Positions 1-47,463 of a DNA stretch of 64,000 bases are shown here, in pieces. The position numbers and the translations under genes are program-made. The stretch's first letter is position 1; each line of letters starts with the position of its first letter. This stretch comes from a virus. Taxonomy: Duplodnaviria > Caudoviricetes. The stretch covers positions 1 to 64,000 of IMG/VR virus record IMGVR_UViG_3300026549_000043; one strand, given 5' to 3'. The notes beneath the pieces were generated by a model. The model was not told where the DNA came from. It saw only the letters and a list, made by a program, of their open reading frames with translations, and searched no databases.

Positions 1-80
1 AAGCTATGATTGTGATATAGTCTAATCTATATGGTGACATATAGAAAACAAATGGAAACGATTTGTTTGTAATATAAATG
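1..80 (+). mobile_element. 3' end of a group I intron in the major capsid gene
   Basis: S element GATATAGTCT at 14-23, followed by P9-type hairpins (ctatatg/catatag, acaaat/atttgt) and a terminal ...ATAAATG resembling the ...ATAAACG end of the second intron. The capsid frame resumes right after. The 3' splice site is probably G80 (G81 possible). Confidence 0.75.
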
Positions 81-1256
81 GTTGTTAATGACATTTTCAT
101 GGTTAAGCCAATGACTTCATTCAGTGGTTATTTGACTTATATGGAATTTTCTCTTGGTACAGAAAAGGGCGGTGCTGGTGGCATTGCTGAAGCTGATCCA
201 TTCAAGAACGCTATGGCTGCCTACCGTGGTGGACAGGATGGCGCTTACACAGACCCATGGGGAGCTAACACAATTACTAATTCTCCAATCTTAGGCTTAG
301 GCAAAATGACAGAAGGCCGTGCTCGTTACACAGGTGCTGCTGTTGTTGAAACATTAGGCAGTGATGCAAAGGCTTCTTGGACTCCAGTTTTAAAGGCTTG
401 GGATATGGATGCTCTTGATTCAGAAGGCAATCCAACTGAATTAACAATTGCTGCTGGCCAGATTTCTAATGGTACAGCTGGTCATAAGGTTAAGTATATT
501 TATGACAATGAATACATCCCACAGGAAAAGTTACCAACATTAGTTGGTCATATGGCTGGTATTAATTTAACAGCTAGAGCTCGTAGAATTGCTGTTTATT
601 ATTCACAGTTTGCTGCATTCCAGAGCAAGCAGGATTATGGCATGGATTTCGAAGCTACAATCGCTCAGCAGGCTCAGGCTGAATTACAGTATGAAATCGA
701 TGGTGAAGCTGTATTATTAGTTAAGGAAGCTGCTAAGAACGTTGAAGGTTTACAGTGGGTAGATGAAGAATTAGATACAATCTCTTACTCAATGAAGGCT
801 GAAGGCTTTGCTAGAGTATTAGAACAGGCTAAGGCTGCTGTATACAAGAAGACTGGCCGTTGGATGCCTAACTGGATGTTAGTTGGCCCAGAGGTTATGC
901 CTATCTTATCATTCGTCAAGGGATTCCAGCCAGCTGCTAATGCTGTAGTAAATGGACCATACGTTGCCGGTACTGTTGCTGGCTTAAAGGTTATCGTTTC
1001 TCCAATGCTTGGTAAGGAATGCTTACTTGGTGTTTTAGGTGCTGATGGAAAGACCGCTACAGGCGTTTACGCTCCATATCTTCCTATAGTACCAACTCAG
1101 TTATTAGGTTTTGCTGATGGTACTATGTCTCAGGGTTTCTCTACAATGTATGACATGAGAATTTTAAATCCAGCTTTAATTGGTAAGATTGAAATTACTA
1201 CTGGAAATAACATGTTCTTAGGTCAGGTAGAAGTTGTAAATAACTCAGAGATTTAA
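78..1256 (+). CDS. Major capsid protein, T4 gp23-like (5' part outside window; unspliced C-terminal form)
   Basis: VVNDIFMVKPMTSFSG resembles gp23 LIAFDICGVQPM; also ARARRIAVYYS, AELQYEID and GVYAPYLP. Codon usage typical of a highly expressed gene. Confidence 0.88.
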   Translation: MVVNDIFMVKPMTSFSGYLTYMEFSLGTEKGGAGGIAEADPFKNAMAAYRGGQDGAYTDPWGANTITNSPILGLGKMTEGRARYTGAAVVETLGSDAKASWTPVLKAWDMDALDSEGNPTELTIAAGQISNGTAGHKVKYIYDNEYIPQEKLPTLVGHMAGINLTARARRIAVYYSQFAAFQSKQDYGMDFEATIAQQAQAELQYEIDGEAVLLVKEAAKNVEGLQWVDEELDTISYSMKAEGFARVLEQAKAAVYKKTGRWMPNWMLVGPEVMPILSFVKGFQPAANAVVNGPYVAGTVAGLKVIVSPMLGKECLLGVLGADGKTATGVYAPYLPIVPTQLLGFADGTMSQGFSTMYDMRILNPALIGKIEITTGNNMFLGQVEVVNNSEI

Positions 1257-1602
1257 GGTTAAAAATGTGGCTCTAGTTAGTAATAACTAGATGATAATGA
1301 GGTTAATTGCTGGAATCTCCTGAAGGTATATATACTACAAAGTAATTCGTGAGAATAAGCTTGAAGGTTTGAAAAATTATATATTATAGGACAATCAGCA
1401 GCTAAGCTTGTTTAATAAATCAATTAAACATGGTAGAGTTAAACAAGAAAGTTCAACGACTAAGGGGTAGCGCCCTGTAGGAATAAAGTTATTCCGAAAG
1501 ACCTCACGCCCTATAAGGGTGATAATATAGTCTCGTCTCTATAGAGATATAGAGCTAACATAAGTTAGTATGTAATTTAACGAATTACATAAAAGATAAA
1601 CG
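1078..1602 (+). mobile_element. Group I intron (IA-like) with a duplicate 3' exon in loop L1
   Basis: P AATTGCTGGAA 1305, Q AATCAGCAGC 1393, R GTTCAACGACTA 1451, S AATATAGTCT 1524. P3 TGAGGT(1298)/ACCTCA(1501); P7 GACTA/TAGTC. IGS ATGTGG 1265-1270 pairs with CCAT|AT at 1074-1079, placing a G-U pair at the splice site. Terminal G1602. Confidence 0.85.
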
Positions 1603-1778
1603 ATATGCCAATCGTTCCAACTCAGTTATTAGGTTTCGCTGATGGCACAATGAGCCAGGGCTTCTCAACCTTATATGATATGAAGATCTTAAACCCAGCT
1701 TTAATTGGTAAGATCGAAATCGTAGAAGGCAACAACATGTTCTTAGGACAGGTTGAAGTAATCGACTCAAGCATCTAG
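1603..1778 (+). CDS. Capsid 3' exon (spliced C-terminus YMPIVPTQLLGFADG...EVIDSSI)
   Basis: Joining T1077 to A1603 restores TAT-ATG-CCA in frame. The 57 aa are nearly identical to 1080-1256, and a terminator follows. Confidence 0.85.
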
Positions 1779-1800: not shown

Positions 1801-1827
1801 AGAGGAATCATAAGATTCCTCTTTTTT
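1801..1827 (+). terminator. Intrinsic terminator after the capsid gene
   Basis: AGAGGAATC-ATAA-GATTCCTCT followed by a T run. Confidence 0.85.
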
Positions 1828-1829
1828 AT

Positions 1830-2607: not shown

Positions 2608-4758
2608 ATGTCAAAATTATTATTAGAGAAAACTAGAAGAGAATTAATCAATCAATCAAAGGCTGCCGCCCCCGTAAAATCTTATGGTACTACTAGATAT
2701 GAAAGAAAAAATAAACAGCATATCTATAATAGTATTACTAATTTTAATAAGATTGATATGAATGCTTTATTCCAAGGTAATATGCTATCCTTTAAAGTGC
2801 CTGTTCATGGAGAAACAGATAATTATGAAGTTGAAGTACTTTTTGAGGGAATCTGTGATGGAATAAAACGTGAAGTAAAACGTAATAAAAATAAATTTGA
2901 ATATAAATGTGTTTATAGAGCATTAATCGATTCCATTAATAAACAAGATATTTATATTTCATGCTCATGCCCTGATTGATGTTTAGAAGGAAGCACCAAA
3001 ATAAAACTTTTAAATGGTGAAGTTTATACTGTAGAAGAATTAAAAGATAAATTTGATAAGGGCGAAGACCTTTGGGTATATTCAACCGATTCTAATGGTG
3101 ATTTTAAACCTGGACATGTTAATGATGTGTGGGTCAGTGGTTACACTACTGAGTTAGTAAAGGTTACATTAGACAATGGAGAAGAAATTTTAACAACTCC
3201 TAATCATAAATACATGCTTAGAGATGGATCGTATCTTGAAGCAGAAAAACTACAAAGTGGTCAATCTTTAATGCCTCTTTATTTTAGAGATACTAATGGG
3301 TATGAAAATGTAAAATTAAATTCTAAGAAACAGACTTCTTATTTTAGTGTTTACAAATTAGTTGCCAATGAACTATTAAAAGAAGAGATAGATAGTGCCA
3401 AGATAAGAAGTGGTGAAGAAGTTATTGCAATTCATCATATTGATTTTAATAAAAAGAATAATTATCCATCTAATTTAAAACCTATGGGTGTCCAAGAACA
3501 TTATAAATATCATTATGAACATGTTAAAGAATCTGGCGTATTGGATAAATGGATAAAGGCTGGTCAGGAACATAATAGGAAAGTGAAGGATCACTCAACT
3601 GAGGGGTATAAAATCCAAGCTAAGGTCATGTATGATGCCTTGTGGAGTGACAATGGCTACTATTCAAATAGAACACAAGAAGAAATAGATAGAGACTTTA
3701 CTGTTCACAGCAATGCAACAAAATCTGCCTGGGTAAGAGGCTGTTATAATACAGAGGCATTTAATAATGCATCAAAACAGAGGGGTGTTAATTTACATAC
3801 TCCTGAGGTTGAAGCCTTAGCTTTACAGGGTATCAGAAATCACTATAACAACTTATCTGACGAGGAAAGAACTAAAATTTCAAATAGAAATAAAGTAAAT
3901 AGTAAGACCGGCTGGCAAAATAACAGAGATAGTTATATGAAGAGTGAAAAATTTATGACCGCTAGGAAACATGGCTTTGATACTGTTCATACTGAAGAAA
4001 ATTTGTTAAAATCTAAAAAAAGTAGATTAGAAAAATATGGGAATGAAAACTATAATAACCCTCAAAAAATGAAAGTGTCTCGTTGTTTAAGAAATTTAAA
4101 AGAATTAATTGAAAAGAATATACCATTAACAGAAGAAAATTTCTATGCAAACAGAAGAAATGGAGACCCTCATTGAAGTAAAGTTTTTTCATCATTTAAT
4201 TCTATGTTAGAATACTTTGGTTTAAATGCTTATAATCATAAAGTAAAGAGTGTAGAATTTATTAAGTATGAAAACCCTATTCCTGTTTATGATTTATCAG
4301 TAGAAAAATGGAATAATTTTTATATCAATGCAGGAGTTATACTCCATAATTGCTATAGATTCTCTTACTGGGCTACTAAAGATAGATATAATGGTGGAAG
4401 ACCAGAGGTTAGAGTAGCAGATATTACTAACCCTAATAATAATCAGGGTGCTGGGTGTAAACATACCATTGCTGTTCTTTATAATTTGGATTGGGCTATG
4501 AAGCTAGCTACTAGTATTTCAAATTATGTTGAATATATGCAAGAAAATTATGAGGATAAATTTAAAAGATTAATTTTTCCAGCAATTTTTGATATTTCTT
4601 ATGATGAATATATTTCTGATGAGGTAGATGATGAATTGGCTAATTCAATGGATAATGAAGAAGACGTTGAAGAAATAGATAAATCTATAGAAAGAAGCCT
4701 ATATAAACCAGAGGAAGAAACCGAAGAAGAAACAGAAGAAGTCACGGAGGTTGAATAA
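2608..4758 (+). CDS. SWIM zinc-finger protein interrupted by an intein (TGA=Trp at 2977 and 4174)
   Basis: Three track ORFs share one frame and are separated only by TGA. The exteins join to CSCPDW|CYRFSYWAT...GCKH (CxC...CxH SWIM pattern). Confidence 0.85.
2980..4350 (+). mobile_element. Intein with HNH homing endonuclease (457 aa)
   Basis: Starts CLEGSTKIKLLNG; block B ILTTPNH; HNH IHHIDFNKKNNYPSNL; ends VYDLSVEKWNNFYINAGVILHN followed by Cys. Confidence 0.93.
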
Positions 4759-47365: not shown

Positions 47366-47463
47366 ACCTCGGTCTTACTGTCCGGTGACAGGAACGGTCT
47401 TCAAAATCGTAGGACACGGGTCCAACCGTGTTTATGAGGGCTCGACACCTTCCCGAGGTGCCA
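47366..47463 (+). tRNA. tRNA with UCA anticodon (UGA reader), tRNA-Sec-like scaffold, 7/5 fold
   Basis: ACCTCGG/CCGAGGT acceptor, G73-CCA; D arm CTGTC-CGGT-GACAG; anticodon loop CT-TCA-AA; 8-bp variable arm; T arm GAGGG/CCTTC. Confidence 0.85.

Follow-up and report, generated by a model that had tools for sequence, protein, structure and literature searches.

Why should the capsid gene of a rumen phage carry its ending twice, once inside an intron and once behind it? The question is raised by positions 78–1778 of a 64,000-nt stretch of viral DNA (Duplodnaviria; Caudoviricetes; positions 1 to 64,000 of IMG/VR record IMGVR_UViG_3300026549_000043), referred to below as the window. An open reading frame (ORF) at 78–1256 encodes a Gp23-like major capsid protein (MCP; Pfam PF07068, E 1e-20), and its last 58 codons (1080–1253, stop at 1254–1256) are repeated at 1605–1775 (stop at 1776–1778), with a group I ribozyme core between the copies. 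We consider it probable that the insert is a splicing-optional, fail-safe mobile group I intron that carries a surrogate exon in the capsid gene. In what follows, E1 is the upstream capsid exon, C1 the intron-borne ending and C2 the downstream ending, and contigs of relatives are given L-numbers. The elements of the locus are:

78–1077, plus strand: E1, the Gp23-like capsid exon (Pfam PF07068); its last base, T1077, is the first base of a Tyr codon.
1074–1079, plus strand: P1 5′ strand, CCAU/AU, pairing with 1265–1270, with the predicted 5′ splice site after U1077; the site is common to the introns of L030, L031, L042 and L044.
1078–1256, plus strand: C1, the in-frame surrogate of the last 58 codons plus TAA (1254–1256), within the P1 loop.
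1257–1264, plus strand: spacer between the C1 stop and the guide.
1265–1270, plus strand: internal guide sequence AUGUGG, the P1 3′ strand; its AU could also form a 2-bp P10 with the AU of the 3′ exon.
1271–1601, plus strand: ribozyme core, from the Rfam alignment and helix tables with compensatory changes.
Core helices, first part: P2, 1273–1290; P3, 1299–1303 with 1501–1505; P4, 1308–1313 with 1395–1400; P5, 1318–1320 with 1389–1391.
Core helices, second part: P6, 1407–1447; P7, 1458–1462 with 1528–1532; P7.1, 1464–1476; P7.2, 1480–1495.
Core helices, third part: P8, 1507–1521; P9, 1537–1554; P9.1, 1555–1568; P9.2, 1571–1589.
1602, plus strand: terminal G (omega G), with the 3′ splice site directly after it; this is the exact limit of identity with L001.
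1603–1778, plus strand: C2, the native 3′ exon (AT, 57 codons and TAG), 100% identical to L001 and capsid-like in codon usage.
1801–1828, plus strand: terminator-like hairpin and T run after C2.

The two endings align without disruption of the frame and are ~86% identical as proteins. Over the first 52 codons they share 78% of their nucleotides, with differences at 23.5 of 33.3 synonymous sites and 10.5 of 122.7 non-synonymous sites (synonymous divergence, dS, ~2.1; non-synonymous divergence, dN, 0.09), and the differences between the two isoforms are concentrated in the last 20 residues. At 58 codons C1 accounts for ~15% of the protein, and its origin is demonstrably a capsid gene. The unspliced frame reads APY-LPIV... 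and the spliced frame APY-MPIV...; both are complete, and the claim of the first-pass annotation that spliced and unspliced RNA each encode a full capsid protein is borne out. The ATG at 78 is probably not the true start of the gene, which extends further upstream in L003.

The limits of the insert can be read from an allele that lacks it. The viral contig L001 is 100% identical to 78–1077 and to 1603–1787, and because it joins 1077 directly to 1603, the insert is exactly 1078–1602 and C2 is the native ending. The first-pass annotation had also taken C2 as native, on the basis of codon usage, and the strongest evidence for this is the intron-less allele rather than the codons. The insertion point lies between the first and second bases of capsid Tyr334, a hot-spot. 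The hairpin at 1801–1828, after C2, is the sole terminator-like hairpin within 900–2000, and none follows C1.

The segment between the endings matches Rfam RF00028 at 1251–1554 (78.7 bits against a gathering score of 50, E 3.6e-20, model positions 1–253), so that the last ~58 capsid codons do occur twice around a complete group I core, as first noted. Pairing of CCAU/AU (1074–1079) with AUGUGG (1265–1270) would place a U1077–G1267 wobble at the 5′ splice site. The 3′ exon starts AT ATG directly after G1602, and an intron end of ...AAACG is kept in relatives. The 6-bp P1 match is weak when taken alone, since (C/U)(C/U)AUAU occurs 4 times in 1264 nt; the 5′ splice site is fixed by homology, because the introns of L030, L031, L042 and L044 sit at the same CCAU position. 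The L001 joint and these homologous introns together confirm the limits of 1078–1602 that had been proposed from the window alone and support the predicted guide pairing, with C1 in the P1 loop. A local P1 proposed by Rfam (1255–1261 with 1268–1274) has one mismatch and three G–U pairs and would put the splice site after the stop; the site of the homologous introns was preferred. The intron looks subgroup IA-like in its P7.1 and P7.2 hairpins, an assignment made by inspection and not with a subgroup-specific model, and the P7.2 pairing is backed by compensatory changes.

The introns of L030, L031, L042 and L044 are ordinary ones, with the same CCAU site, a GUGG guide and a P1 loop of 28–35 nt. 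In the C1 forms this loop is 170–189 nt long, and in the window its 189 nt are made of C1. The C1 form appears to be derived from an ordinary intron at the same site. Every member of the intron family, with or without C1, has the stop of the exon frame 6–15 nt 5′ of GUGG (7–11 nt in the members without C1). A ribosome terminating there would sit on or beside the guide sequence (window 1254–1270; L030, L031, L039, L041, L042, L044 and L046–L048).

Comparison with relatives suggests that the ribozyme has been maintained. Helices P4 and P7 are invariant, and P2, P3, P6, P7.2, P8 and P9.2 show 8–17 compensatory double changes per relative; among C1-bearing lineages, L041 has 8 such changes with respect to the window and L039 has 14. 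The C1 form of L041 scores 77.7 bits with Rfam, and normal forms score 76.7 and 73.6 bits. Within P1, GUGG is conserved and the +1 base of the intron covaries with the base 5′ of GUGG in the 10 introns at this site, the pair being A–U in every C1 form, U–A in L030, L031 and L044, and G–C in L042. In the C1 forms, +1 is an A that is fixed by the Tyr codon. In L003 and L039, the 3′ exon opens with AC where the window has AT, and splicing would there give TAC, which also encodes Tyr. The ribozyme thus appears to have been under selection after the capture of C1, with P1 maintained, and is probably still used, because helices and P1 covary, Rfam scores are high in both forms, C2 is intact and codon-adapted (see below) and the AC exons preserve Tyr.

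The arrangement is not peculiar to the window. The same layout recurs in the independent contigs L002, L003, L038, L039/L040, L041, L046, L047 and L048; an 81-kb ENA contig shares it as well, as judged by its gene layout only. The shared order is E1; a Tyr codon cut after its first base; C1, with Leu as its first codon, and a stop; 6–15 nt; (A)U-GUGG; the ribozyme; ...AAACG followed by A(T/C) ATG; and C2. At least six lineages are represented, with E1 identity as low as ~73%. C2 is reached by nine C1-bearing contigs (the window, L003, the 81-kb contig, L039/L040, L041, L046, L047 and L048), and it is intact in every one. Every cassette opens C1 with a Leu codon (CTT or CTC), and native genes have ATG there; across 120 capsid protein clusters, the residue after the Tyr is Met in 103 and Leu in 9. 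Exact-pattern scans found no further contig among viral contigs and added one among metagenome contigs, and a cultured-phage database returned only short matches to the P3–P6 core and capsid proteins of <30% identity.

The site also appears to be used well beyond the C1 forms. A public protein collection holds 62 orphan ORFs of 41–100 aa, most starting MPIVPTQLLGF, and many of these mark ordinary introns at the capsid hot-spot. These sequences show that the capsid Tyr/Met site is a widespread insertion hot-spot, and annotations routinely list the native last exon as a small gene of its own. At 3372–3575 of L045, a Leu-type ending (APW-LPII...) stands without an intron and with a terminator hairpin directly after its stop. 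It may be a surrogate that became fixed, an allele immune to the endonuclease or a member of the kind of lineage from which C1 came.

Mobility of the intron is indicated by the distribution of sequence identity around it. Compared with L038, the window is 76% identical in distal E1 and 88% in mid E1; the value is 95% beside the site, 93% for C1 and 98.7% for the intron. The pairs window–L002 and window–L003 show the same gradient (overall 76–89%, 88–98%, 92–98% and then 98.7–100% in the intron). Identity climbs toward the insertion site, as expected of a mobile element that homes with co-conversion of its flanks, and L001 provides an intron-less allele. A GIY-YIG ORF lies within P6, near window position 1420, in L003, L038, L039 and the 81-kb ENA contig. 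The L003 ORF matches PF01541 and PF19835 and is intact over 195 aa if TGA is read as Trp; the window intron has no endonuclease gene, which has been cleanly lost. Having CTT or CTC in place of ATG as the first C1 codon may protect the recreated E1–C1 junction from the endonuclease. In L031, only a 14-codon GIY-YIG remnant is left in P6 (4030–4085, read by eye). The endonuclease gene of the normal intron in L030 (5900–6551, also read by eye) has an in-frame TAG where relatives have Gln, which could be recoding or decay, together with an apparent frameshift.

If unspliced RNA is translated to a useful protein, C1 should bear the marks of a coding sequence. Its frame is open in all 10 copies, with no stops or frameshifts, and L038 has an in-frame insertion of 3 nt. 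Between diverged lineages, C1 gives dS of ~0.9–1.5, dN of ~0.10–0.18 and dN/dS of ~0.10–0.17. The variable last 20 residues of C1 match those of C2 in the same genome: they are identical in L046, near-identical in L047 and L039, and matched at single positions in L003 and L038. Despite these host-matched tails, C1 and C2 are only 71–78% identical as DNA. The conserved head of C1 has 63–83% DNA identity to C2 and tends to group with other C1 heads and apart from the C2 of the host, with clustering of the label in 500 of 500 shuffles. A single origin of all Leu-type heads is neither shown nor rejected, as trees of the short C segments are poorly resolved (p-AU, from the approximately unbiased test, 0.36). 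The simplest reading of these sequences would be that C1 is a mosaic surrogate, with a cassette-specific head and a tail that has repeatedly been matched to the host; a mosaic with a host-matched tail would in turn mean that the protein made from unspliced RNA matters, and C1 appears to be functional at the protein level. The first-pass annotation had held that both copies look selected because they differ mostly at synonymous sites. That argument is insufficient, since the divergence could predate capture, but selection is supported on other grounds, namely the dN/dS of ~0.1–0.17 of C1 in relatives, the host-matched tails and the 8–14 compensatory changes in the ribozyme.

Codon usage separates the two endings by one measure and not by another. 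With codon adaptation taken as the mean log2(f_MCP/f_background), the window gives 0.61 for C2, −0.03 for C1 and 0.34–0.66 for segments of the upstream exon, and C2 lies ~0.6 log2 units above the C1 of its own genome in all four genomes tested (C1 range −0.13 to 0.03). A simple count of C-ending codons does not distinguish C1 from E1 (0.45 versus 0.41). The codon contrast between C1 and C2 in the first-pass annotation holds with the better measure, codon adaptation. The adaptation values suggest that C1 is translated less often than E1 and C2, which would fit a back-up role. We also considered a deliberate synonymous recoding of C1. The C1–C2 divergence alone does not require it, as L005 compared with L003-C2 gives similar dN and dS. 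The proportion of synonymous sites that differ (pS) between C1 and C2 is 0.68–0.77 within genomes and reaches 0.99 between genomes, and values of pS >0.8 in cross-genome comparisons keep the idea alive.

RNA data contain both of the predicted forms. A 576-nt contig from a sheep-rumen metatranscriptome joins 671–1077 directly to 1603–1771, and cassette contigs are present in the same run. In a bovine metatranscriptome, an unspliced contig has a depth of ~20, a 52-nt junction contig composed of E1 (1056–1077) and the first 30 nt of C2 has a depth of 25, and C2 has a depth of 48; these depths look like expression rather than DNA carry-over, because that of a neighboring gene is ~8. Single contigs from the RNA runs cover 1056–1632 without any difference from the window. 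A DNA run gave no contig over 871–1827, which is uninformative. Two E1 variants occur in the RNA and merge in an identical stretch before the branch to either ending. The contigs are consistent with splicing at 1077/1603, and we infer that the joint arises in this way.

These observations can be assembled into a model of how the element arose and works. The P1 loop of an ordinary intron would have acquired an in-frame surrogate of the entire downstream exon (C1, 58 codons and a stop), by one illegitimate join between the 3′ end of an intron-less capsid gene and the P1 loop of an intron-bearing allele, possibly at a shared TAA. The AU beside GUGG would then have been retained to pair with the AU of the Tyr codon. 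The unit of C1 and ribozyme, with or without the GIY-YIG gene in P6, would spread by homing among related rumen and gut phages. Where P1 forms (1074–1079 with 1265–1270), the intron including C1 would be excised and E1 joined to C2, giving the native protein. On RNA that is left unspliced, ribosomes would cross the 5′ splice site, read C1 and stop at the TAA 8 nt before the guide, giving a full-length E1+C1 protein that would assemble into capsids. C1 would in this way act as a fail-safe: incomplete splicing would carry no cost in the most heavily expressed gene of the phage.

Several findings weigh against this model. Only 4 base pairs of P1 involve the exon, and 187 nt of translated sequence separate its two strands; ribosomes could hinder its formation. 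C1 replaces a Met that is invariant in 103 of the 120 capsid clusters, and E1+C1 may be less fit. Patches of gene conversion between C1 and C2 (ATCAAT in L003, 15 nt in L039) could mimic selection on C1. The cassettes of the window group are nearly identical between hosts, which points to a recent invasion, and intact C2 in that group says little about selection. Finally, strains without the intron could themselves supply the joint seen in RNA, given that alleles such as L001 exist and that two or more E1 variants are present in the RNA samples.

Gene ends can be permanently replaced by mobile ORFs of the type known from fungal mitochondria, and C1 might likewise be the working end, with a ribozyme that splices rarely or never and C2 as an undecayed remnant. 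The parts are ordered as in a published precedent (PMC3630166), the unspliced frame is complete, ribosomes passing from E1 to C1 would disrupt P1, C1 is under purifying selection with host-matched tails, and the Leu-type ending of L045, with its own terminator and no intron, could be a fixed replacement. A remnant would not, however, be expected beside ribozyme helices and a P1 +1 pair that covary among C1-bearing lineages, nor to be intact in nine of nine contigs, to keep the capsid-type codon usage that C1 lacks and to be followed by the terminator that C1 lacks, and the exact 1077/1603 joint is present in RNA contigs. We regard this alternative as unlikely. That six or more lineages conserve the ribozyme together with both endings, that the two forms have comparable depth in RNA contigs and that the proteins differ mainly in their last 20 residues would also fit a programmed system in which splicing efficiency sets the ratio of E1+C1 to E1+C2 and both isoforms are needed, for example at different capsid positions. 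Yet most relatives, including L001 with its identical E1, make do with a single ending and no intron, so two isoforms are not required; the cassette behaves as a selfish mobile element, and the C1 tails converge on the C2 tail of the host instead of diverging from it. Such a program seems to us quite unlikely.

C1 might also serve the selfish element only, its protein being irrelevant. As a spacer or decoy, its sequence might shield the recreated junction from the endonuclease or reduce loss by recombination. A Leu first codon (CTT/CTC) in every cassette against the native ATG, and the very high synonymous difference between C1 and C2, are what this would predict; a dN/dS of ~0.1, a frame open in all copies, the in-frame indel of L038 and the host-matched protein tails are signs of selection on protein, and they make this explanation improbable. 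An assembly chimera of two strains, raised as a possible artifact when the locus was first annotated, would draw on the fact that the genome record does mix strains, its two ends overlapping in the capsid gene at only 84% identity. Independent contigs rule it out to our satisfaction, since the same layout occurs in at least 10 of them from different samples and assemblers and single RNA-run contigs span 1056–1632 without differences; its probability is negligible. The splicing-optional intron therefore remains our preferred explanation. It can be extended, more tentatively, to a selfish module of three parts (homing endonuclease, ribozyme and surrogate exon) in which the surrogate is held under two opposed constraints. 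Its protein would have to fit each host capsid, with the tail repeatedly converted to that of the host, and its DNA would have to stay unlike the native exon, so that the endonuclease would not cut the recreated junction and the intron would not be lost by recombination; splicing would thereby become optional. This extension is possible, and we hold it with less than even confidence.

The surroundings of the cassette include another intron in the same gene, of which the window holds the end:

1–77, plus strand: the 3′ end of another group I intron, which precedes E1 in the capsid gene (nhmmer match of the intron-core profile at 2–44).

L001 and L002 have complete homologues of this intron immediately 5′ of the VVNDIF exon. 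The capsid gene has three group I introns (window 1–77; 137306–137566 and 138514–138771 of the genome record, G000), and the window starts inside the second. Searches of the 140-kb genome by motif, blastn and nhmmer found no introns outside the capsid gene and no second exon-carrying intron. The ends of the record overlap in the capsid gene (G000 138728–139874 with window 1–1168); because they are only 84% identical there, the record is best seen as a circularly permuted assembly that switches strain. The end copy in G000 also runs into a C1-type ending.

Some features of these genomes concern the reading of TGA. The intron endonuclease genes (L003 1611–2198; L039 2779–3366) have an in-frame TGA where homologues have Trp. 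At 47366–47459 the window has a tRNA-like gene whose anticodon is UCA and whose variable arm is long; tRNA-Trp(CCA) follows directly downstream. The UCA gene scores 39 bits with Rfam tRNA-Sec, below threshold, and is not called by ARAGORN. The endonuclease genes and this tRNA-like gene suggest that phages of this group read TGA as a sense codon. Within 2608–4176, one ORF closes with CSCPD, after which come TGA and CLEGSTK, and the ORF at 3127–4176 has a weak match to an intein-splicing domain (31.5 bits against a cut-off of 35.8). The region 2608–4176 looks like an intein in a SWIM-type zinc-finger gene that would require read-through of TGA.

How does the capsid element compare with known systems? 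Mobile group I introns of phages, of the T4 td, nrdB and nrdD type, carry their endonuclease gene in a peripheral loop, and the exon frame meets a stop soon after it enters the intron. The element described here resembles them in its subgroup-IA-like core with P7.1 and P7.2, in the GIY-YIG gene in P6, in the existence of intron-less alleles with co-conversion of flanks and in an exon frame that ends shortly before the guide. It differs from them in that the P1 loop of 28–35 nt has become one of 170–189 nt that codes for the rest of the host protein, so that the unspliced message does not specify a truncation. Group I intron ORFs of yeast cob and cox1 are fused in frame to the upstream exon and encode maturases or endonucleases; translation likewise passes from the 5′ exon over the splice site into an intron loop, but these ORFs are not known to encode the remainder of the host protein. 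In the surface-layer gene of Clostridium tetani, a group II intron makes alternative use of 5′ splice sites. That is also a bacterial self-splicing intron that gives more than one protein isoform from one locus, but it makes several spliced products and is not known to give an unspliced one completed by an intron-borne exon copy.

Fungal mitochondria have mobile endonuclease ORFs that deliver the end of a gene from a foreign source, in atp6 of Allomyces macrogynus and in atp6, atp9, cox2 and nad3 of Glomus (PMC3630166); in the case of Glomus atp6 and cox2, the native end is absent from mRNA (PMC3630166). There, as in L003 and L039, a gene body is followed by an inserted in-frame C-terminus, an endonuclease gene and a displaced native C-terminus, and the insert is horizontally acquired, with inserted and native copies similar in protein and diverged in DNA. 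The phage element differs in that the end and the endonuclease gene lie inside an intact ribozyme bracketed by splice sites, so that splicing can restore the native end, and in belonging to a phage rather than an organelle; the conserved ribozyme, intact C2 and RNA joint set it apart from a permanent replacement. A surrogate exon in the P1 loop of an intact, conserved ribozyme, with splicing restoring the native end, was not found in the literature searched, in keeping with the first-pass annotation, which knew of no such arrangement inside an apparently intact phage intron. The parts are known (IA introns with GIY-YIG genes, stops just inside introns, fungal ORFs that bring a C-terminus).

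Self-splicing introns of phages are usually thought to be tolerated only through efficient splicing. Here a natural intron would be freed from dependence on splicing by carrying the rest of its host gene, a case of a selfish element that would lower its own cost where truncated products could poison assembly. It would also indicate that a translated P1 loop of ~180 nt is compatible with long-term retention of a ribozyme, and it would link phage introns to the gene-end replacement elements of fungal mitochondria. For annotation, the locus carries a caution: a called capsid ORF may be the back-up version of the protein, with the native ending left as an orphan ORF of 57 codons.

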